Counted from the stretch's first letter, positions 3,544 to 29,624 are shown. The stretch is 64,000 nucleotides of DNA from Edaphobacter sp. (GCA_965277545.1 OZ255826.1:1628817-1692816), one strand, 5' to 3'. A program made the numbers and translations. Notes: a model not told the origin generated them from the letters alone.

Positions 3544-4833
3544 CTACTCATATTTCAGCGTCTGCACCGGGTCCAGCCGCGCCGCCCGGTTCGCCGGCAG
3601 CGTTCCGAACAGCACCCCTACCAGCACCGAGGTTCCCAGCGCAAACACTGGCGACCACCAGCTGATCGGAATCTTGAACGGCGTCAATAAACCCAGCGTC
3701 ATCGGCAGCGCAAGCCCAAGCAGCGTCCCGGCCAGGCCACCCGACAACGACATAAACACCGCCTCAGTCAAAAACTGCAGCCGGATCTCGCGGCTTGTCG
3801 CCCCCAGCGCCTTGCGGATGCCGATCTCCTTGATGCGCGACTGCACGTTGGCCAGCATGCTGTTCATGATGCCCACCCCGCTGACCACCAGCGTGATCCC
3901 CGCGCCAAGCGTCAGCACGATCGTCAGCATATCGGCGATCTTCGCCATGCTCGTCAGCAGCTCGGTCAGCGTCTGCGCGTTGTACACCGAGCCGGCATAG
4001 TGGCGCGACCGGATGATCTCGAGAATGCGATCCTTCGCCGGCATGACCATGGACGCGTCGCGCATGGTGAAAAAGATCTCCTTCAACGCGGCGGTGCCGG
4101 TGAAATACTGCAGCACCGGATACGGCACCAGCATGGTCGTCTCGCTGATCTCCGACTGCCCGTAGGTATCGACACTCTCGCGGAATACCCCGATGATGAC
4201 AAAGGGAATGCCCTTGATGCTGATCGTCTTGCCGAGCGCGGCCTCGGAGGTCCCATAAAGCTCGTCCGCGAATGGCTTCACAATCACCGCCACGTGCTCA
4301 TGCGCGACCGAATCCTGATCGTCGAAGAAGCGGCCCGCGACCACGACCAGATTGCGAATCGCACGATACTGCGGCGAAACGCCAAGCAGCATCGTCGCCT
4401 TGGTCACGCCGCCGCCCACGCTCACGTTGTCATGGAACTCCAGCATCGGCGATGAGTCGACGATGCCCGGCACCTGATCCTCGACCGCATGCATATCGTC
4501 GAGCGTCAAAAAGTCCGGCGTACTTGTATTATCCGGTCCCGAGATATTGCCGCCGCCATACTGCAGCTCAATCTTATTCGGCCCAATGCTGTTCAGCTGG
4601 TCGAGCGCATACTGCTTGCCCGTCGAGCCGAGCGTCGCCACCAGAATGATCGACGCCGAACCGATCACCATCCCCAGCATGGTCAGCAGAAAGCGCGTCT
4701 TGCTGGCGCGAAAGCTGTCCACCGCCAGCCGGAAAACTTCGCTGAACAACATCGTCGAACGCGCGCTCGCTAGCGTGTGATCGAACGAGCTCAGTCGCGG
4801 AGTGTGTCTGATGGTCGCCATCGGGCTAGGCAA
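3544..4833 (-). CDS. ABC transporter permease, MacB/FtsX family
   Basis: N-terminal TM helix, large periplasmic MacB-like domain and C-terminal FtsX-type helices (..GIRKALGATSREIRLQFLTEAVFMSLSGGLAGTLLG..). The start is uncertain (4833, or Met-28 at 4752). Confidence 0.85.
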   Translation of the reverse strand: MPSPMATIRHTPRLSSFDHTLASARSTMLFSEVFRLAVDSFRASKTRFLLTMLGMVIGSASIILVATLGSTGKQYALDQLNSIGPNKIELQYGGGNISGPDNTSTPDFLTLDDMHAVEDQVPGIVDSSPMLEFHDNVSVGGGVTKATMLLGVSPQYRAIRNLVVVAGRFFDDQDSVAHEHVAVIVKPFADELYGTSEAALGKTISIKGIPFVIIGVFRESVDTYGQSEISETTMLVPYPVLQYFTGTAALKEIFFTMRDASMVMPAKDRILEIIRSRHYAGSVYNAQTLTELLTSMAKIADMLTIVLTLGAGITLVVSGVGIMNSMLANVQSRIKEIGIRKALGATSREIRLQFLTEAVFMSLSGGLAGTLLGLALPMTLGLLTPFKIPISWWSPVFALGTSVLVGVLFGTLPANRAARLDPVQTLKYE

Positions 4834-4896
4834 TTAGACGTCTTTCAGTATCGCAGCGGTGCACCAATCCCTGCTAACCTTAGAAGCACCTCACGC

Positions 4897-4986
4897 GGAG
4901 GGATGTGTGAGCGGTTGAAACAGGCGGTCTTGAAAACCGCTTAGCCTGAAAGGGCTACGGGGGTTCGAATCCCTCTCCCTCCGCCA
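4897..4986 (+). tRNA. tRNA-Ser (anticodon UGA)
   Basis: Acceptor GGAGGGA/TCCCTCC. Anticodon stem GCGGT/ACCGC with loop CTTGAAA. Long variable arm TAGCC-tgaaa-GGCTA. T arm GGGGG-TTCGAAT-CCCTC. Discriminator G and encoded CCA. Confidence 0.9.
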
Positions 4987-5202: not shown

Positions 5203-7518
5203 TTGTTCAAGCGACTCATCCCGTTCCTCTTCCTTCATGCCTTCCCGCTGCTCGCCCAAAGCAACAGCGGAGAGCTGCAGCTCCACGTGTCCGATCCATC
5301 CGGCATCGGCGTCCAATCCGCCATTGAAATCACAAGCCAGGCAAATTCCTATCGCCGGATACTGACCACCGACGAGCAGGGGGACCTGGAGGTCCAGCAC
5401 CTGCCCTATGGGCTCTATTTGTTCCACGTGGAACATTCCGGCTTCGCGGCCATCTCGGAGCCAGTCTCGATCCGCTCCTCGCTTCCAGTAAAACTCGCCC
5501 TCCGCCTCACCCTGACGACGGTCAGCCAGTCCGTCACCGTCACCGCGGAAAACACTCTGCTCGACACTGAGCAGGCCGGCTCCGTCAACCGCATCGGCTC
5601 GAGCGCCATCGAGCACCGGCTCAGCTCCCTTCCTGGCCGATCGCTCCAGGATCTGGTGAACTCGCAGCCCGGCTGGCTCTACGAGGGCAACGCCGTGCTG
5701 CACCCGCGCGGCTCCGAGTACCAGACGCAGTTTGTCATCGACGGCATCCCCCTCACCGACAATCGCTCCCCCAGCTTCGGCCCGGAGATCGAAGCCGACG
5801 ATGTCCAGTCGCTGAACATCTACACGGCCGGCATCCCGGCAGAGTACGGCCGTAAACTGGGCGGCGTGATCGAGGTGAATACAATTCAGGATTCCCAGGC
5901 CGGACTCCACGGGCAGGCCGTGCTCTCCGGCGGCAGCTTCGTCTCAGCCGGCGCCTTCCTCCAGGCCCAGTATGGCTGGAAGAACAGCACCCTCGGCGGC
6001 AGCGCGAGCGGCAGCAGGACCGACCATTACCTGAACCCTGTCGTGCCCGAAAATTACTCGAACACCGGAACCCTTGGCGATTTTTCCGTCAACGGCCAGC
6101 GCAATCTCACCCCGGACGATCGCGTGAACCTAGTCGTTCGCCACGAGCTCTCGCGCTACGACCTCCCCAACGAGTTCCTCCAGCAGGCCGCCGGCCAGCG
6201 TCAAACCGCGGCAAACGTCGAGACCATGGGCGTCATCTCCTATCAGCACGTCTTCTCGTCCACGATGCTTGCCAACCTCCGCGGCATGGTGCGCGACAAC
6301 GCCAACGACTTCAACTCCAATGCAGCCTCCACGCCCATCGAGGTCTTTCAACACAACGGATTCCGCGAAGGATATTTCAACGCCGCCGTGACCGTGGATC
6401 GCGGACGCCATGAGTGGAAGTTCGGCCTGGAATCCGACAACACCTTCCTCAAGGAAAACTTCCGCTACCTCATCACGGATCCTACCCGGTTCGACAGCGG
6501 CACGCCTAGCAGCTTCAGCTTCCTCGCAAACCGCCCTGATCTCGAACAGGCCGCCTTCGTGCAGGATCATATCCATCTCGGCGACTGGACCATCGAAGCC
6601 GGTCTCCGCTGGGACCACTACCAGCTTCTTCTGAACCGGCAGGCGTTCCAGCCGCGCCTTTCCGCCTCGCACTACTTTAAGTCCGTCGACACCGTCGTGC
6701 ACTTCTCCTATGACCGCATCTTTCAAACGCCCTCGTTTGAAAACATCCTGCTCTCCAGCTCTCCCGCGGTCGAAGCGCTGAGCCCGAACTTTCTGCGCTT
6801 TCCGGTCGAGCCTTCGCAAGGGGACTACTACGAAGCCGGCCTCACCAAAGCGTTCGCTGGAAAAATCAGGCTCGATGCCAACTACTTCCGCCGCTTCTTC
6901 AACAACTTTGCCGACGACAGCCAGCTCGACAACACCACGATCAGCTTCCCCATTTCATTCCGCAAAGCGGTCCTCTACGGCGCCGAGGGCAAGCTTACGG
7001 TTCCCGACTGGCGCCGCTTTTCCGGCTTCGTGAGCTACTCCTACAGCGTCGGCAACGCCTGGTATCCGGCTACCGGCGGCCTCTTTCTCGGCAACAACGC
7101 TGCGGCGGCCGCGGCACAGCTCACCGGCCACTTCCCGGTCTCGCAGGATCAGCGCAACACCCTTCGCGGGCGCGTCCGCTACCAGATCAAGCCGCGCGTC
7201 TGGATTGCAGGCGGCGTGCAGTACGACTCCGGACTGCCGTTTCAGTTCAATGGCGATTCAGCAACAGTGCTCGCGCAGTACGGCCAGCAGGTGCTCGACC
7301 GCATCAACTTCGACCGCGGCCGCATCTATCCTGCGCTGCTGTTCAACGCTACGGCCGGCGCAGACATCTATCAATCGGATCGAGTGAAGATGCACTTCCA
7401 GACCGACGGCGAGAACCTCACCAACACGCTCGATGTGCTCGACTTCGGCGGTCTCTTTTCGGGCAACGCCATCGGCCCCTCGCGCAGCTTCGCCCTGCGG
7501 CTCACCGCCAGTTTCTAG
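5203..7518 (+). CDS. TonB-dependent receptor with carboxypeptidase-regulatory-like N-domain
   Basis: Signal peptide, then CarboxypepD_reg-like segment (ELQLHVSDPSGIGVQSAIEI), plug-like segment (..FVIDGIPLTDN..) and a long beta-barrel ending ..FALRLTASF with terminal Phe. Confidence 0.85.
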   Translation: MFKRLIPFLFLHAFPLLAQSNSGELQLHVSDPSGIGVQSAIEITSQANSYRRILTTDEQGDLEVQHLPYGLYLFHVEHSGFAAISEPVSIRSSLPVKLALRLTLTTVSQSVTVTAENTLLDTEQAGSVNRIGSSAIEHRLSSLPGRSLQDLVNSQPGWLYEGNAVLHPRGSEYQTQFVIDGIPLTDNRSPSFGPEIEADDVQSLNIYTAGIPAEYGRKLGGVIEVNTIQDSQAGLHGQAVLSGGSFVSAGAFLQAQYGWKNSTLGGSASGSRTDHYLNPVVPENYSNTGTLGDFSVNGQRNLTPDDRVNLVVRHELSRYDLPNEFLQQAAGQRQTAANVETMGVISYQHVFSSTMLANLRGMVRDNANDFNSNAASTPIEVFQHNGFREGYFNAAVTVDRGRHEWKFGLESDNTFLKENFRYLITDPTRFDSGTPSSFSFLANRPDLEQAAFVQDHIHLGDWTIEAGLRWDHYQLLLNRQAFQPRLSASHYFKSVDTVVHFSYDRIFQTPSFENILLSSSPAVEALSPNFLRFPVEPSQGDYYEAGLTKAFAGKIRLDANYFRRFFNNFADDSQLDNTTISFPISFRKAVLYGAEGKLTVPDWRRFSGFVSYSYSVGNAWYPATGGLFLGNNAAAAAAQLTGHFPVSQDQRNTLRGRVRYQIKPRVWIAGGVQYDSGLPFQFNGDSATVLAQYGQQVLDRINFDRGRIYPALLFNATAGADIYQSDRVKMHFQTDGENLTNTLDVLDFGGLFSGNAIGPSRSFALRLTASF

Positions 7519-22386: not shown

Positions 22387-22543
22387 TGCTTGCTGTCCCG
22401 ATCCGCTGCTTACGCGATTCTTAAACAGGTTCTTAGGCTGCCGAGAACAAACTATCCATCCTTCACGAAAAAAGCTCGGGACGGCGGGTGGTGTGAGTGA
22501 TAATGGGTGCTCTCACAAGCAGCAGGGGCACACGAGGCGCAAC

Positions 22544-24172
22544 ATGAGGACCATGGTCGATGGCGTTATTCGCGCGTTGTTGACGGCCCTCTTGGTGGGA
22601 GCGTGCGCGGCCTTGCCTCTCCAGGCGCAGGACGGTTGGTATCCCGGCCAATATCCCGGCCAGAGCGTACGGTGGCGCGGCGCACGGGCAGGCTTCACTC
22701 CCGGCCCAGGCGCGATCCAGGGCGGTCCTGGAAGCGATCCAAACCCCGGCTCCCCCATGTACCTCTGCCGCGCGCAGGATCAAGGCAGCCTGGTCCCCGG
22801 CAAATGGGTTGGAGGCAATTGCAACGTGGCCTTCAACAACCGCGAAGACGTCATGGGCTCCTACGAGGTGGCGTACGGACAAGCGCAGTGGGGCCCGTAT
22901 CAGGGCACCGTGCAGGGTCTGGTGCAGACCGGCCGCGAACCAGACGGTTCACCGCTCTTCTCCTGCCGCGTCGACTACATCACCAACTTCCCGCATAACG
23001 ACTTCGGCTTCCAGCCCGGCAAGCTCGTGCAGGATGGCACGTGTCACTTTCCTCTAGGCGGCGCCGAGATCGTCCAGGGCCCTCCCTTCGACGTGCTGTA
23101 TGCAAGCGGCGGAGCTTACCCCCCCAATCCCTATCCGCCGCAATATCCTTACCCTTACCCGTATCCCAATCCCTATCCGCCCCCGCAGCTTCCGCCCTGT
23201 CAGCTCAGCGACCCAGGCGTCGTGCTCAACAGCGACGGCCTGTGGGCTGGGCCGAACTGCACGCCAAGCGACGGCCGCGGACACATACCCGGCGCGCCGC
23301 CGCCCCCCAATCCGAATCAGCCGCCGCCCGGCCCCTGGCAGCCCGGACCCAGTTCGGTGAGCTGGCAGCAGGTGCAGTCGCCGTTCACGCCTGGCCCCAG
23401 CGCCGTCATGGGCGGCCCCGGGAACGGACCCAAGCCGGGTGCCCCGCTCTACGTCTGCCGCGCCTACTACGACGGTGCCTTGTACCCCGGCAAGTGGATC
23501 GAGGGTAAGTGCAGCTTCGCCGACGCGGCAAGCAAGGAAGAGAAGGTAGACCAGTATGAGGTAGCGAACGGCAGCGCCGCGTGGCAGGACTTCGACGGCA
23601 ACATCGGTGCGCTTGTCCCCGGCGGATACGACGTGGACGGCACCCCCCAGTACATCTGCCGCAAGCAGCTGAACTTCTTCGGCAACAAGGGCTTCCAGCC
23701 CGGACGCCTGGCAGCTGGCCAGTGCATCATCGCCTACGGCGGCATGGCAACCTCCTCCGGGCCGCCCTTCCAGGCGCTCTACAACGTCTTTCCCAACCCC
23801 GCACCCGGGCCGCAGCCGGGAGCCCCTGCGCCGGATGCGGCGGGCGCTCCCGATCATTCATCCGCGCAGGCGCAAGGAATTCCAGCGGAGCAAGGAATCC
23901 CAGCGGAGCAGGGAATCCAGCTAGAGTTCGTGTCGGGCACCGACGACGCCCCGGGTACGGCTTCGGTGACCAATGCCGCCAACGGCAAAACCGTCAGCCG
24001 GCCGCTGCATCCGCACTCCTCCTCCGCCGCGTGCGTGTTGGTGCTCGAGCAGGCGGCCCTAGCTGCGGGCCTGCAGATCCAGGCGCTGCCCGACGGCACC
24101 GGACTGCGGGTCTACGGCCGCAGCAACGTCGTGAACGTAACCGGAGCCTCCTTCACCGTCAGTCCGTTCTAA
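22544..24172 (+). CDS. secreted protein with two DM9/DUF3421-like double modules and a Pro/Tyr-rich linker
   Basis: Signal peptide from ATG 22544. The motif recurs: ..PMYLCRA..GSLVPGKW..GNC..YEV.., ..LFSCRV..FQPGKL..GTC..FDVLY.., ..PLYVCRAYYDGALYPGKWIEGKC..YEV.., ..QYICRK..FQPGRL..GQC..FQALY. Linker PNPYPPQYPYPYPYPNPYPPPQLPP. Confidence 0.65.
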   Translation: MRTMVDGVIRALLTALLVGACAALPLQAQDGWYPGQYPGQSVRWRGARAGFTPGPGAIQGGPGSDPNPGSPMYLCRAQDQGSLVPGKWVGGNCNVAFNNREDVMGSYEVAYGQAQWGPYQGTVQGLVQTGREPDGSPLFSCRVDYITNFPHNDFGFQPGKLVQDGTCHFPLGGAEIVQGPPFDVLYASGGAYPPNPYPPQYPYPYPYPNPYPPPQLPPCQLSDPGVVLNSDGLWAGPNCTPSDGRGHIPGAPPPPNPNQPPPGPWQPGPSSVSWQQVQSPFTPGPSAVMGGPGNGPKPGAPLYVCRAYYDGALYPGKWIEGKCSFADAASKEEKVDQYEVANGSAAWQDFDGNIGALVPGGYDVDGTPQYICRKQLNFFGNKGFQPGRLAAGQCIIAYGGMATSSGPPFQALYNVFPNPAPGPQPGAPAPDAAGAPDHSSAQAQGIPAEQGIPAEQGIQLEFVSGTDDAPGTASVTNAANGKTVSRPLHPHSSSAACVLVLEQAALAAGLQIQALPDGTGLRVYGRSNVVNVTGASFTVSPF

Positions 24173-24350: not shown

Positions 24351-24499
24351 CCGATAAGCTTCACACGCCCATACCATCAAGACCTTTCTACCCCATCTTC
24401 CGGATTCCGAGCACCCCCACCCGCCACTTCCGGCTCATCAGACTTCCCGCTAAACGCAAACAAATGTGATTGCACTCGCTGTTGCACCTGCCCTTCTTG

Positions 24500-24610
24500 C
24501 CATCGGACCTTCCTTGCCCTTGCCCTTGCCCTTGCCATTGCCGTTGTACTTGCTTTTGCCCTAGCCTTTCTGGTTGTCATCCTCGAAGAGGATCTGCTTT
24601 TGCTCTTTCA
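24500..24610 (+). repeat. Repeat family E, copy 3
   Basis: (CCCTTG)x4 microsatellite, then ..GCCTTTCTGGTTGTC-ATCCTC-GAA-GAGGAT-CTGCTTTTGC (hairpin 24579-24593). Confidence 0.75.
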
Positions 24611-24935
24611 GAAGACCAACTTCAGCTCCCCAAACTATTTTTCTCGAAATCCGGGCCAAATTCGCATGTCAAGCCCCTGAACACGATAAATCAAAGTATC
24701 CAAAAAACTTACGCTTGGCGCATGAGTTTATATCCATTGCGTATAATTAAAATAGCAACGAAAGAGACGCCCAGCCAAGCTCCGTGCTGACCTAACTCCT
24801 TTGGAATCTAAATTTTTAGGGTTAATTCCCCTCGAATCTATATTTTGCGCGCCAAGATTCCCCCAAGGACAATTATACACTTGACACATAAATAGATTAG
24901 CGCGATACTTGAAAAAGTAGTCAAGAGGCGCAGCG

Positions 24936-25886
24936 ATGAATCTGATAGACGTAACCCGCGAGTTTCAGAACGATGATGATTGCCTCGCCTACCTTGAGAC
25001 CATGCGCTGGCCAGATGGTATCCGTTGCCCTATCTGCGGCGCAAAAGAAATCAGTAAGATCACCCGTAAGACTCCCTCCAAGAACAAGCGCACCCGGATC
25101 TACCAGTGCCTAGAGAAGACTTGCAAATCGCAGTTCTCTGCCACGAATGGAACGATCTTCAATGATTCTCATCTCCCCCTAACGAAGTGGTTCATGGCTC
25201 TGGCCATCGTCGTAGACGCGAAAAAAGGCATCTCCGCAAAGCAGCTACAGGAGCACTTAGGCATCGGCTCCTATCGCACCGCTTGGTACATGGCGCACCG
25301 CATCCGTAAGGCAATGACTGCCGATGGAGTCTTTCAGATGACCGGAACGGTCGAAATCGACGAGACCTTCATCGGGGGAACGGCCATACGCCGCTTTCAG
25401 AAAACTCCTAAGGTACGTGCACCTAAGGAAATGGTTCTGGGGATGCGCGAACGTAGCACTAAGGACAAGACGGGCCGGGTCCGCTACTTCCATATCCCAG
25501 ACGGCAAGCGGAGCACGATCCAGCCCATCATTGAAGCTAATGTTGCGCCGTGGGTCAAGCGGGTTTACACGGATTCCAGCGCGGTTTATGACTTCGCTAT
25601 AAACGAAACGCTTGCGCCGCGTCACCGCAAGGTCAATCACTCTGAGCAGTGGGTTGTGCCGGGTAGCCGTATCCACACGAACACGGTCGAGTCCAGCTTC
25701 TCACTCCTCAAGCGTGGTTTGATAGGCAGCTATCACCGCGTCTCGATAAAGCACCTGCACCGCTACCTTACGGAGTTTGAGTACCGTTTCAACGCACGTA
25801 AGGCGTCGGACCGCTTTAGCATGACGTTGGGGGAGATGATGAAGACATCCGCTATGCCTTACGCGGCTTTGACGGCGGGGGAATAG
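24936..25886 (+). CDS. IS1595 family (ISXO2-like) transposase
   Basis: N-terminal transposase zinc ribbon (..DDDCLAYLETMRWPDGIRCPICG..YQC..C), then the DDE domain (..VEIDETFIGG..VYTDSSAVY..) and C-terminal ..LKRGLIGSYHRVSIKHLHRYLTEFEYRFNAR, which is typical of the family. Confidence 0.85.
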   Translation: MNLIDVTREFQNDDDCLAYLETMRWPDGIRCPICGAKEISKITRKTPSKNKRTRIYQCLEKTCKSQFSATNGTIFNDSHLPLTKWFMALAIVVDAKKGISAKQLQEHLGIGSYRTAWYMAHRIRKAMTADGVFQMTGTVEIDETFIGGTAIRRFQKTPKVRAPKEMVLGMRERSTKDKTGRVRYFHIPDGKRSTIQPIIEANVAPWVKRVYTDSSAVYDFAINETLAPRHRKVNHSEQWVVPGSRIHTNTVESSFSLLKRGLIGSYHRVSIKHLHRYLTEFEYRFNARKASDRFSMTLGEMMKTSAMPYAALTAGE

Positions 25887-25936
25887 CGGGGATTATCTTC
25901 CCGGCTTTCCCCTGAGTCTTTATCCCAGCCTTAGGC

Positions 25937-26170
25937 TCAGGCGGTGACTTCATCATGCGCTGAAGTAGGCTGTCGAATTGTCCCTTGTCTACCTTCATAT
26001 CTCCTCACCTCCAAAGGCCTGAGCGACTCCCGGAATACGTGCTCTGCGCCGCATTTGTAGCATTTCACCATACCAGTGTAAGCTCCCGCAGTTTGGGAGA
26101 GACACGCGCCACACTCCATGCAACTGGACTCGACAACGGCCATCGGGAAACCCTCTAGCCCAACTCTCAC
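25937..26170 (-). CDS. hypothetical zinc-ribbon protein
   Basis: CMECGAC..(17 aa)..CYKCGAE forms two CxxC pairs. Start is GTG 26170 or Met-10. No homologue recognised. Confidence 0.4.
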   Translation of the reverse strand: MRVGLEGFPMAVVESSCMECGACLSQTAGAYTGMVKCYKCGAEHVFRESLRPLEVRRYEGRQGTIRQPTSAHDEVTA

Positions 26171-26265
26171 GCATCCATAAGTGACTTCAACTTTATTTTG
26201 ACGCCACCGGTTGACTTATAATGGGTCAGCGTGTCACTGTAGAGAGGTTGTTTTAGGAGACCACG

Positions 26266-26778
26266 ATGGAGACTACCAAAATTCGCATGAAGATTGGAAC
26301 TCACGAGTTTGAGGCCGAGGGTCCCGCTGAAACAGTAAAGGAGCAACTTGAGGCATTTCGCTCTCTTCTGAGTACAGGAGAGGCGATTGTGAAGACAATT
26401 GCATCTCCTGCCCAGCCTGAAAGTTCCGCTAAAACAGGCGATCCTACTCATGTCAGCCTAGAACGAATTATGCGAGTGCAAGGGCGCATTGTTTCGCTTA
26501 CTGCCATACCTGCCTCAGAGGGAGACGCGGCCCTGCTTGTGCTATTGGGAAACAAAGATATGCGAAACAACGAAGCCGTCACAGGTATGGAGATCGGAGA
26601 CGGCTTGGCGCAATCAGGACGCCCTGTCTCCCGCGTTGATCGGGTGATGGAGAAATTGAAAGAAGAGGCATTTGTCATGAAGTCTGGGTATCGGCGAGGC
26701 GTCAAGTACCGCCTCTCCAACTCGGGACACACAAAGGCTCTTGCTGTTGCAAGGGAGTTGATCGCGTCTCTTCCATAA
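26266..26778 (+). CDS. hypothetical protein with probable C-terminal winged-helix domain
   Basis: Strong AGGAG 7 nt upstream of the ATG. The C-terminal half (..AVTGMEIGDGLAQSGRPVSRVDRVMEKLKEEAFVMKSGYRRGVKYRLSNSG) looks like a wHTH; this is pattern recognition only. Confidence 0.55.
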   Translation: METTKIRMKIGTHEFEAEGPAETVKEQLEAFRSLLSTGEAIVKTIASPAQPESSAKTGDPTHVSLERIMRVQGRIVSLTAIPASEGDAALLVLLGNKDMRNNEAVTGMEIGDGLAQSGRPVSRVDRVMEKLKEEAFVMKSGYRRGVKYRLSNSGHTKALAVARELIASLP

Positions 26779-26863
26779 CGGGAGCGCGTTGGAGGGCACG
26801 ATGATAAGAAGAGCCGTAGCCCGTCGCCATCCCGTCCACCGTGACGGCGGGTGCAAGCAGAAA

Positions 26864-26906
26864 GCCTCGAATCGCTAACATCCTGTCGAGGGACGCGATT
26901 CGAGGC
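26864..26906 (+). other. Perfect 12-bp inverted repeat (hairpin) 14 nt upstream of the unusual tRNA
   Basis: GCCTCGAATCGC (26864-26875), 19-nt loop, GCGATTCGAGGC (26895-26906), followed by TTGGTGGTT. Confidence 0.6.
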
Positions 26907-26920
26907 TTGGTGGTTCCACT

Positions 26921-27010
26921 GGAGGGGTACTGTCGGCGGCGCGACTAGGAGCCTTATAAACTCCGAACGGCAGTGTGCAACCACTGCGGGTTCGACTCCC
27001 TACCTCTCCG
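26921..27010 (+). tRNA. Non-canonical tRNA-like gene, 9/3 (allo-tRNA-type) cloverleaf, anticodon UAU, Ser-type variable arm and G73
   Basis: Acceptor GGAGGGGTA (26921-29) pairs with TACCTCTCC (27001-09): 9 bp with one G-U. D stem GTCG/CGAC. Anticodon stem GGAGC/ACTCC, loop CTTATAA (anticodon TAT at 26955-57). Variable stem GCAGTG/CACTGC. T arm GGG-TTCGACT-CCC. Discriminator G 27010. No encoded CCA. Confidence 0.65.
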
Positions 27011-27059
27011 CTTCCCTCTAGTGTAAGCCAAGACTTGAGAAATTAATAGGGGTTTTGCG

Positions 27060-27299
27060 ATGGCGCTTTACAGATACAGTACCTTCCTGAGCATTCTTAA
27101 CAACGATGAATTCGACAAGATTTACAGTCCTGGCGACAGAACATCGTGGTCCGGCATATACAGATGCGAAGGCTGCGGACACGAGGCGGTACATACGATT
27201 GACAAGCCACTACCGCCTCAGAACCATCATCAACACAAACCAGGGCAAGGTTCTATTCGCTGGCGGTTGGTAGTAACTGATTCTGTCCCTCCTGCTTAG
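27060..27299 (+). CDS. hypothetical small protein (CxxC..H-rich)
   Basis: 79-aa ORF inside the AT-richer island with ..YRCEGCGHEAVH..NHHQH.. Its 3' end overlaps the convergent ORF 27253-27465 by 47 nt. Confidence 0.4.
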   Translation: MALYRYSTFLSILNNDEFDKIYSPGDRTSWSGIYRCEGCGHEAVHTIDKPLPPQNHHQHKPGQGSIRWRLVVTDSVPPA

Positions 27300-27465
27300 G
27301 CACACTTAGAAACATGGGTGTACACGGCTCCTGCGGACAGTTGCTCCAAAGGAGCCGTGCCATGTTGGGAAGAGCATCCGCAACCCCGATTGCACGTTCT
27401 GCTGGTACCTTATCCTTCATGAACTCCAGCACAGCCTTTACGTCCCTGTTCACCTCGATCTGCAT
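27253..27465 (-). CDS. hypothetical small protein
   Basis: 70-aa ORF. AGGAGG lies 6 nt upstream of its ATG (reverse complement of CCTCCT at 27472-27477). Confidence 0.45.
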   Translation of the reverse strand: MQIEVNRDVKAVLEFMKDKVPAERAIGVADALPNMARLLWSNCPQEPCTPMFLSVPKQEGQNQLLPTASE

Positions 27466-27692
27466 TTGATCCTCCTGTTAATCAGGAGATTAACATAAGT
27501 AAAATTATGTGTCAAGTGCATAATTCCCCCCCCCCAAGTGACTCATTATAGGCAACTTGCAAAATAGAGGGGGGAGGGGGGTACCCCCTCGTGATCCTAG
27601 TCTAAGTAATTCCCTCGCTGCGACGCCAAAATACCAGGGTGCCCCATAACCGGACTCTCGGACATGGGCCAACGACTTCGCCACCAAGCTAG

Positions 27693-29547: not shown

Positions 29548-29624
29548 TGGTCGGGACGACTAGATTCGAACTAGCGACCTCACCCACCCCAAGGGTGCGC
29601 TCTACCAGGCTGAGCCACGTCCCG
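29548..29624 (-). tRNA. tRNA-Pro (anticodon GGG)
   Basis: Reverse complement: CGGGACG-TG-GCTC-AGCCTGGTA-GAGC-G-CACCC-TTGGGGT-GGGTG-AGGTC-GCTAG-TTCGAAT-CTAGT-CGTCCCG-A-CCA. Confidence 0.9.

Follow-up and report, generated by a model that had tools for sequence, protein, structure and literature searches.

A tRNA-like sequence located at 26921-27010 (+) of a 64,000-nucleotide stretch of Edaphobacter sp. DNA (GCA_965277545.1 OZ255826.1:1628817-1692816; below, the window means this whole stretch, and positions are counted from its first letter) folds with a 9-bp acceptor and a 3-bp T stem, and combines a 6-bp variable arm and a G73 discriminator with the anticodon UAU. The question raised by this locus is what such an RNA is, and what it does where it is found. 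It is a genuine structured RNA, non-canonical and of the allo-tRNA kind, i.e. of the tRNAs in which the acceptor and T stems form an 8/4 or 9/3 branch (Mukai et al., Nucleic Acids Res 2017, PMC5389517). Its gene is a passenger inside a transposon of the IS1595 family of insertion sequences (IS), which ends in terminal inverted repeats and has duplicated 8 bp of its target. In the transposase of this element, ATA is under codon-level selection at three tolerant positions. On sequence comparison, the reading judged slightly better than even is that the tRNA decodes the AUA codons of its own element, and would so gate the synthesis of the transposase.

The tRNA(UAU) gene and its relatives

A first-pass annotation of the window, made from the sequence alone, had described the 9-bp acceptor pairing, the T arm GGG-TTCGACT-CCC, the 6-bp variable arm GCAGTG/CACTGC and an anticodon loop CTTATAA providing U33, UAU and A37, all of which are present in the sequence (Table 1). 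It had also held that a 7/5 reading fails and that the branch sums to 9+3 = 12 bp, in agreement with the sequence and with the minimum-free-energy fold, which is the 9/3 cloverleaf (z = -2.4). Similarly, the G73 and the initial GGAGGG in common with the canonical tRNA-Ser(UGA) at 4897-4986 were confirmed, as was the contrast in CCA, which is missing here and encoded by both canonical tRNAs of the window (Ser-UGA at 4897 and Pro-GGG at 29548). ARAGORN, proposed there as a check, predicted a tRNA-Ile(tat) at 26921-27011. The general tRNA model of Rfam, RF00005, gave no match at gathering score for 26921-27010, while the true tRNA-Ser at 4897 reaches 53.7 bits; the best Rfam match was to the tRNA-Sec model RF01852 (31.1 bits, E = 1.9e-4, for a cut-off of 47). 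A covariance model of the type A family, defined below, assigns 98.2 bits to the gene.

Homologues were collected by one exact-pattern scan each of genome and metagenome collections. Only the T arm and, with UAU, the anticodon arm's 5' half were prescribed by this pattern; the invariance of the T-stem GGG/CCC, like that of UAU, is therefore uninformative on structure. The hits fell into three types: type A, about 35 window-like loci from Acidobacteriota, one of which (L138) differs from the window tRNA by a single base; type B, 15 loci from Planctomycetia/Pirellulales; and type C, an unrelated tRNA class encoding CCA and having an 'AGAU' loop in the variable arm.

In a MAFFT alignment of the 30 distinct type A sequences, 96.8% of the cells are paired, against 43-56% in slid controls, and 12 pairs feature changes on both sides, a number reached by none of 500 shuffles. 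Covariation of the helices had been proposed as a check: it holds for the 9-bp acceptor, at six of nine pairs, including pair 8 (U-A, U.G, C-G, A-U) and pair 9 (A-U, G-C); the 3-bp T stem is kept invariant by the search pattern. Five of the six pairs of the variable stem covary as well and, because its last base covaries with its partner in that stem, no base is left for a fourth T pair. RNAalifold independently predicted the 9/3 structure. The D stem was excluded from the counted structure, MAFFT having misaligned the D arm between subfamilies, and was checked in each sequence: the stems are 4-6 bp long and differ in sequence, and all D loops contain GG. The discriminator is G in all 30 aligned sequences; allo-tRNAs have G73 or U73, together with the long variable arm, as a Ser-type identity set.

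The alternative named by the first-pass annotation was a degraded fragment of a canonical tRNA. A decaying pseudogene of tRNA-Ser, with a 9/3 appearance arisen by accident, would fit the GGAGGG common to both genes, the C.A mismatch in the anticodon stem and the single acceptor-stem mismatches found in a few relatives. It is effectively refuted, and its probability negligible, since compensatory changes affect the acceptor, D and variable stems among the 30 distinct sequences, nine of nine acceptor pairs are formed in 29 of the 35 type A copies and the family is conserved in two phyla. One type A copy (L232, 1017-1107) has GCACCA 3' of the gene; its D arm is degenerate, its 3' acceptor strand contains a U, and it is possibly a retro-copied or recombined version. 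A BLAST comparison of the tRNA region with plasmids gave no match.

The class to which the gene belongs is already known, and the window tRNA is a 9/3 variant of allo-tRNA(UAU). UAU is the most abundant anticodon group among allo-tRNAs, tabulated under 8/4, and the 9/3 form is reported only with Arg, Leu and UAA anticodons; the cloverleaves of allo-tRNA(UAU) are described as 'slightly different', with occasional stem mismatches (PMC5389517). The likeness extends to the 12-bp acceptor/T branch, the long variable arm, G73, the anticodon and the acidobacterial origin, but the published members are 8/4, whereas the window tRNA and about 30 relatives are 9/3. As to the D arm, for which allo-tRNAs follow the tRNA-Sec pattern of a long stem and a small loop, that of the window tRNA pairs over 4 bp around 6 loop nucleotides, and that of its relatives over 5-6 bp around loops of 3-4 nt. 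With tRNA-Sec itself (RF01852) the gene shares an extended acceptor stem, a long variable arm and a compact D arm; it differs in being 9/3 instead of the bacterial 8/5, in having UAU instead of UCA, and in its score below the cut-off of 47. It differs from canonical bacterial tRNA-Ser in its 9/3 rather than 7/5 branch, in its anticodon and in failing to match RF00005 at gathering score. Bacterial tRNA-Ile(UAU) also has UAU, A37 and A38, but A73 in place of G73, and is of class I, without the long variable arm.

Other tRNA(UAU) genes were observed. A separate and abundant class, about 90-95 nt long, mostly with A73 and an encoded CCA, has a long variable arm with a conserved AGAU in its loop (e.g. 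GCGCCAGATTAGCGC); it is found in part of the viral contigs L001-L120, at L133, L134, L137, L139 and L144, and at about 60 of the loci L145-L241. The loose pattern CTTATAA..GGGTTCGANTCCC gave at least 120 matches on viral contigs; among the matches listed, about 79 of 120 are of this class, and because it makes up most of them the search pattern was tightened. In Bryobacterales, Solibacter and Granulicella metagenome-assembled genomes these genes directly follow another tRNA (upstream ...GGCACCA), and some seem to have a 3-bp T stem. The class may be that of the 'polycistrons of irregular tRNAs' of Mukai et al. (PMC5389517). In addition, L231 contains at 6494-6580 (-) a canonical-looking 7/5 gene of tRNA-Ser type (GGAGAGG..., long variable arm, G73) with a UAU anticodon.

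The transposon carrying the tRNA

The element extends over about 24868-27528 (2.66 kb), with a G+C content of 52.8% versus 61.1% for the window, and contains, in order, the transposase, a 170-aa open reading frame (ORF), a hairpin, the tRNA, a 79-aa ORF and a convergent 70-aa ORF. To locate its ends, the sequence upstream of the transposase was aligned with the reverse complement of that lying downstream. Two copies of the core ATTATRCACTTGACACA, and no more, are present in the window, at 24872 (+) and 27524 (-), for an expected number of 0.03, and the inverted-repeat core ATTATGCACTTGACACAGA is present at both ends in the window, L131, L136, L152, L166 and L219. The flanks in the window are CCCCCAAG on the left and C10-AAG on the right, the duplication being blurred by the poly-C run; perfect 8-bp duplications are found at the ends of L131 (GAGCTAAG), L166 (GTTGCGCT) and L219 (TTCTTTTT). 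The transposase, encoded about 1 kb upstream of the tRNA on the same strand, matches DDE_Tnp_IS1595 (2e-30) and, at its N-terminus, Zn_ribbon_IS1595 (1.4e-11) in Pfam, and transpos_IS1595 (7.3e-54) in NCBIfam.

The first-pass annotation had referred to a 2017 study in which allo-tRNA genes were often near mobile elements. The study exists, with the content stated there (PMC5389517), and the linkage holds here, but the gene lies inside an IS1595-family transposon and not merely near one. Transposon-related ORFs and toxin-antitoxin genes were noted as linked to allo-tRNA(UAU), and one Edaphobacter allo-tRNA pseudogene overlaps a transposon-related ORF (PMC5389517); regular cargo status in IS1595 or IS1 elements and fixed AUA codons in transposases are not in that paper. 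A full-text literature search gave no account of tRNA genes being conserved passengers of IS1595 elements. In the literature searchable here the 9/3-UAU combination, the IS1595 cargo status and the fixed AUA codons are all new, as is the parallel in planctomycete IS1 elements described below. The remaining features are those of IS1595 elements with passengers: a Zn ribbon followed by DDE_Tnp_IS1595, inverted repeats, an 8-bp target duplication and variable passenger ORFs.

The ORFs placed between the fixed parts, including the slot of the 170-aa ORF, differ from copy to copy. Homologues of the 79-aa ORF are located downstream of the tRNA in L131/L215 and L218, and one of the 70-aa ORF is in L131 (47% over 58 aa). 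The 170-aa and 79-aa ORFs have no NCBIfam or PADLOC match and nothing significant in Pfam, and the 70-aa ORF has no significant family match; cargo in sister elements includes helix-turn-helix (HTH) or antidote-like proteins. The sequence of the hairpin (GCGATTCGAGSCTTGGTGG) is also present in L127 and L138; in L131, L136 and L142 its place is taken by GC-rich hairpins that resemble terminators. An element end at the 3' end of the tRNA, where nucleotide homology to other loci stops, was considered and dropped, as the true inverted repeats are 500 nt further on. Two minus-strand ORFs over the tRNA (178 and 94 aa) were also discarded as spurious: they lack family matches, and their homology is the antisense of conserved DNA.

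Of the type A loci, 25 have 900 nt or more of sequence upstream, and in 19 of these a transposase homologue (48-83% identity) or its remnants precede the tRNA on the same strand; type B and C loci have none. The association was also approached from the opposite side. Relatives of the transposase at E<=1e-30 number more than 7000; contigs of nine of them were fetched without reference to any tRNA, and searched with the type A covariance model and ARAGORN. As these relatives were picked via the transposase, the bias of the search pattern is removed. A tRNA is present in eight of the nine evaluable elements, window included (Table 1), and lies between both inverted repeats in L242, L252, L254, L260, L271 and L272. 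In the seven elements whose tRNA sequence was read, the anticodon loop, G73 and a GGAG or GGAA start persist; the acceptor/T split varies (7/5, 8/4, 9/3), its sum being always 12. For the subfamily with an 8-nt anticodon loop, ARAGORN calls a 4-base anticodon 'ttat' in L260/L261 and no gene in L258 or L268. The linkage of a long-variable-arm tRNA(UAU) with one transposase clade is near-obligate.

Several further features of these contigs were recorded. The identical P0017 transposase is found in several flanking contexts, with at least two left and at least two right flanks in mixed combinations across samples, suggestive of multiple copies in a genome or of recombination among them; the P0017 cargo operon includes a dnstrm_HI1420 (addiction-module-associated) protein. 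In L271 an IS3-type element (HTH_Tnp_1 + rve, 5958-7141) is nested between transposase and tRNA. Directly upstream of P0108, the relative lacking tRNA(UAU), L256 encodes two tRNAs at 4724-4939 (-): an 87-nt class II tRNA with the Asp anticodon GUC, A73 and CCA, and a 76-nt 'tRNA-Ser(GGA)'. GUC is among the predominant allo-tRNA anticodons (PMC5389517).

Fixed ATA codons in the transposase

Codon usage was analysed in 18 elements, whose transposases have pairwise amino-acid identities of 48-83% (median 64%). At three columns, corresponding to codons 4, 263 and 271, ATA accounts for 48 of 54 codons; the exceptions are TGT, GTG, GCG, GTA, GTA and ACC, and ATC and ATT never occur. At 13 other conserved Ile columns ATA is found in 0 of 176 cases, all being ATC or ATT. 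Among 167 conserved degenerate columns, the major codon averages 65% of the sequences, and a single codon is used in only seven; the ATA columns are three of these seven, and the sole ones fixed on a non-preferred codon. Neighbouring codons vary freely (CTG, CTT, CTA, ATC or GTG before; GGC, GGA or GGG after), and an extended nucleotide motif behind the ATA codons was rejected, because the bases on either side vary.

Six distant plasmid IS1595 transposases (28-39% identity) have ATA at none of the three positions. The residues found there are L/Q/V/F/P at codon 4, K/Q/V/R/S at 263 and E/K/H/A/G at 271; it is the codon which is conserved, and not the residue. In P0108 (L256/L257), the one close relative without tRNA(UAU), GTC occupies all three positions and one ATA is located elsewhere in the gene.

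ATA is the rarest Ile codon of the host, with 35 occurrences among 13,163 codons of host ORFs (2.66 per 1000) and among 575 Ile codons, compared with about 11 per 1000 in the ORFs of the element and five in the 316 codons of the window transposase. These figures could suggest a generic helper of codon usage, of the type represented by phage tRNAs, in an element richer in AT than its GC-rich host, the fixed codons being incidental; the difference in G+C content given above and 20 more ATA codons, scattered over non-conserved columns, are in line with it. Such a helper predicts, however, a mixture of Ile codons in each column, whereas ATA makes up 48/48 of them in three columns and 0/176 in 13, and the synonymous sites beside the ATA codons are saturated. 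This explanation is accordingly rated improbable.

A second IS family provides an independent parallel. In 10 of the 15 type B loci (L126, L129, L130, L135, L141, L150, L176, L202, L217, L225) a 294-348-aa ORF, about 400 nt downstream of the 9/3 tRNA(UAU) and on the same strand, encodes an IS1-family transposase (Pfam DDE_Tnp_IS1 5.8e-10, InsA-type Zn ribbon). The tRNA genes of these planctomycete loci are of the form GGAGAGCGG..., and their acceptor pair 7 is often mismatched. In nine IS1 genes one column has ATA for seven of seven Ile, the other two sequences having ATG, and the next column has ATA for four of five; three other Ile-rich columns are nearly all ATC or ATT (one ATA among 20 Ile), and column 298 mixes ATT, ATC and ATA. 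Small as the sample is, its trend agrees with that of IS1595, in a different IS family and phylum.

The features of the window element and the elements sampled via the transposase are collected in Table 1. Just left of the insertion site, a run of (GCCCTT)n tandem hexamers at 24510-24545 gives rise to a spurious Cys/Pro-rich ORF (24470-24790). Farther left, a 559-aa ORF (22493-24172, +) contains DM9 repeats, three in number (Pfam 1e-23), of a domain more familiar from eukaryotes.

Table 1. Coordinates of the tRNA, of the IS1595-family element of the window and of the fixed ATA codons, followed by the elements sampled from the transposase side
Feature	Position	Strand	Evidence and remarks
(9/3) allo-tRNA, UAU, G73, CCA not encoded	26921..27010	+	ARAGORN, minimum-free-energy fold, covariation, family model 98.2 bits
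Acceptor stem	26921-26929 GGAGGGGTA / 27001-27009 TACCTCTCC	+	9 bp: 8 Watson-Crick and G.U at pair 5
D arm	26932-35 GTCG / 26942-45 CGAC	+	6-nt loop GCGGCG, has GG; 2-base linker before
Anticodon arm	26948-52 GGAGC / 26960-64 ACTCC	+	closing C.A mismatch
Anticodon loop CTTATAA	26953-59; TAT 26955-57	+	7 nt; U33, UAU, A37, A38
Variable arm	26970-75 GCAGTG / 26982-87 CACTGC	+	6 bp; preceded by 5 unpaired bases; abuts T stem
T arm GGG-TTCGACT-CCC	26988-90 / 26998-27000	+	3 pairs
Discriminator G	27010	+	next bases CTT, not CCA
Left target-site duplication CCCCCAAG	24860..24867	.	read from flank
Left terminal inverted repeat GACAATTATACACTTGACACATAA	24868..24892	+	end-to-end local alignment; holds inward TTGACA -35 hexamer
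Promoter-like site	24881-24909	inward-facing	10/12 matches
IS1595-family DDE transposase, 316 aa	24936..25886	+	Pfam, NCBIfam
Fixed ATA codon 1 (transposase codon 4)	24945..24947	+	ATA in 17/18, never ATC or ATT
Fixed ATA codon 2 (codon 263)	25722..25724	+	ATA in 17/18; exception GTG
Fixed ATA codon 3 (codon 271)	25746..25748	+	ATA in 14/18; others GTA, GTA, ACC, GCG
Passenger ORF, 170 aa	26266..26778	+	weak winged-helix match: Pfam TrmB E = 0.0021, below cut-off
Long imperfect hairpin (inverted repeat I1)	26851..26919	+	25-nt arms, 84% complementary; ends 1 nt before tRNA 5' end
Passenger ORF, 79 aa, CxxC motif	27060..27299	+	homologues 59-63% identity
Passenger ORF, 70 aa	27253..27465	-	strong AGGAGG ribosome-binding site; reads inward from right end
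Right terminal inverted repeat, reverse complement GGGAATTATGCACTTGACACATAA	27504..27528	-	alignment of ends
Right flank C7+AAG, right copy of the CCCCCAAG duplication	27529..27538	.	lengthened by homopolymer; junction ambiguous by 2 nt
P0034	L252-L254		8/4 tRNA(UAU) downstream
P0024	L272, L273		8/4 tRNA(UAU) downstream
P0084	L258, tRNA 6263-6346		8/4, 8-nt loop CUUUAUAU
P0005	L260 (tRNA 5963-6044), L261		8/4, 8-nt loop CUUUAUAU
P0040	L268-L270 (L268 tRNA 5741-5824)		8/4, 8-nt loop CUUUAUAU
P0017	L242-L251	opposite strand	7/5 long-variable-arm tRNA(UAU), G73, about 220 nt inside right inverted repeat, heads cargo operon
P0098	L271		tRNA-like match (35.7 bits with the covariance model) without an ARAGORN call; anticodon not read
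P0032	L259		contig too short; not evaluable
P0108	L256, L257		no tRNA(UAU) within 5 kb

A possible gate on transposase synthesis

In the proposed mechanism the tRNA would be matured by RNase P and RNase Z cleavage, receive CCA and be charged, and would then read the AUA codons of the transposase on the ribosome. Transposase synthesis would depend in this way on a tRNA supplied by the element itself, as a private rare-codon gate. The main bottleneck would lie at codon 4, as slow decoding there blocks further initiation, and the hairpin abutting the 5' end of the tRNA may set the amount of tRNA made from read-through transcription.

The arrangement recalls known systems. In GC-rich Streptomyces the supply of the bldA tRNA-Leu(UAA) controls the translation of a few TTA-containing genes, and both cases pair a codon that a GC-rich genome rarely uses with a single tRNA dedicated to it. 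The bldA tRNA is, however, canonical and chromosomal and controls development of the host, whereas here a single transposon holds both tRNA and client gene, and the tRNA, which is non-canonical, may carry an amino acid that mismatches the codon. Phage and plasmid tRNA genes are similar, as a mobile element brings the decoder of a codon that it uses more often than the host, where this codon is rare; the differences are the single tRNA of a 2.7-kb IS, codons fixed at specific positions, the non-canonical fold and the discriminator and variable arm of Ser type.

Several observations weigh against a gate. The host already decodes AUA, as shown by the 35 codons counted above, so that a gate cannot be absolute, and the selective advantage that it would give to the element is conjecture. 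Moreover, the tRNA has the C31.A39 mismatch and no encoded CCA, and a stable hairpin abutting its 5' end could hinder RNase P. The joint loss of tRNA and ATA codons is seen in one lineage, P0108, and the sequences are related by descent, so that the codon and linkage counts are of non-independent events. Elements whose tRNA has an 8-nt loop nevertheless keep the first two ATA codons (L258 and L260, with GTA and ACC respectively in place of the third) or all three (L268). Finally, six allo-tRNA(UAU) assayed as CUA variants in E. coli inserted neither Ser nor Ala and gave no amber suppression, and a non-translational role was suggested for the class (PMC5389517); a 2020 review restates the findings of that study (PMC7609411).

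A role outside translation would make the sequence a tRNA-like RNA acting as a processing signal for RNase P/Z or as a stabilising one, or as a regulatory or decoy RNA for cargo of toxin-antitoxin type. The inactive suppressors, along with two UAU members toxic in E. coli (PMC5389517), are compatible with it, as are the position of the hairpin, the unencoded CCA, the 8-nt anticodon loops of some relatives and the HTH/antidote-like cargo of sister elements. A pure processing signal, however, would need no anticodon loop, and CUUAUAA with UAU, G73 and GGAG are kept across 7/5, 8/4 and 9/3 forms in the elements found via the transposase. The fixed ATA codons and their loss together with the tRNA are left unexplained, and the E. 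coli assay altered the anticodon, which alone would abolish charging if this is anticodon-dependent. Such a role is considered unlikely, albeit the least so of the alternatives to the gate.

The amino acid carried by a gating tRNA bears on how the codons would be read. Ser is expected from G73, the G1-G2-A3 start of the acceptor and the long variable arm, while Ile is possible, via recognition of the anticodon by isoleucyl-tRNA synthetase. In favour of Ser, the wider transposase family is mostly polar at two of the three sites; in favour of Ile, a lost ATA is most often replaced by Val, with Thr, Ala and Cys also seen, a pattern which fits Ile as well as Ser. The published CUA variants would have lost any anticodon-dependent charging, which also speaks for Ile. 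The three positions accept a wide range of residues, so that an active enzyme could result with Ser as well as with Ile. A more specific proposal, made tentatively and thought to be less probable than not, is that two unrelated IS families, IS1595 in Acidobacteriota and IS1 in Planctomycetota, carry a private code device made up of a non-canonical Ser-type tRNA(UAU) and of AUA codons fixed at substitution-tolerant positions of their own transposases, in which the tRNA would recode AUA from Ile to Ser and gate transposase synthesis.

Ser charging could also serve a selfish device of mistranslation or addiction, the tRNA(UAU) misreading host AUA codons, with a toxicity that aids maintenance of the element or damps the transposase as copy number rises. 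The conserved Ser identity elements (G73, G1-G2-A3 and the long variable arm) would suit it, and other allo-tRNAs put Ser at Leu codons and killed E. coli, in which the two UAU variants mentioned were toxic (PMC5389517). No conserved antidote partner accompanies the tRNA, however, the cargo differing between copies, and the tolerance of the three ATA positions makes it unlikely that Ser would inactivate the enzyme. This possibility is regarded as very doubtful.

Allo-tRNA(UAU) is the commonest non-canonical tRNA class in soil metagenomes, and the only prior experiments on it were negative; a defined transposon with three fixed cognate codons now provides a concrete, testable client. If the tRNA does gate the transposase, this would be the first IS to control its transposase via its own tRNA, and possibly a natural case of sense-codon reassignment restricted to an element. 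The abundance of the tRNA class would be explained by its multiplication along with the IS, and engineering would gain a compact orthogonal tRNA/codon pair of natural origin. Should the Ile-to-Ser recoding device prove true, the most abundant allo-tRNA class would be a working part of transposon self-regulation, and not inactive debris.

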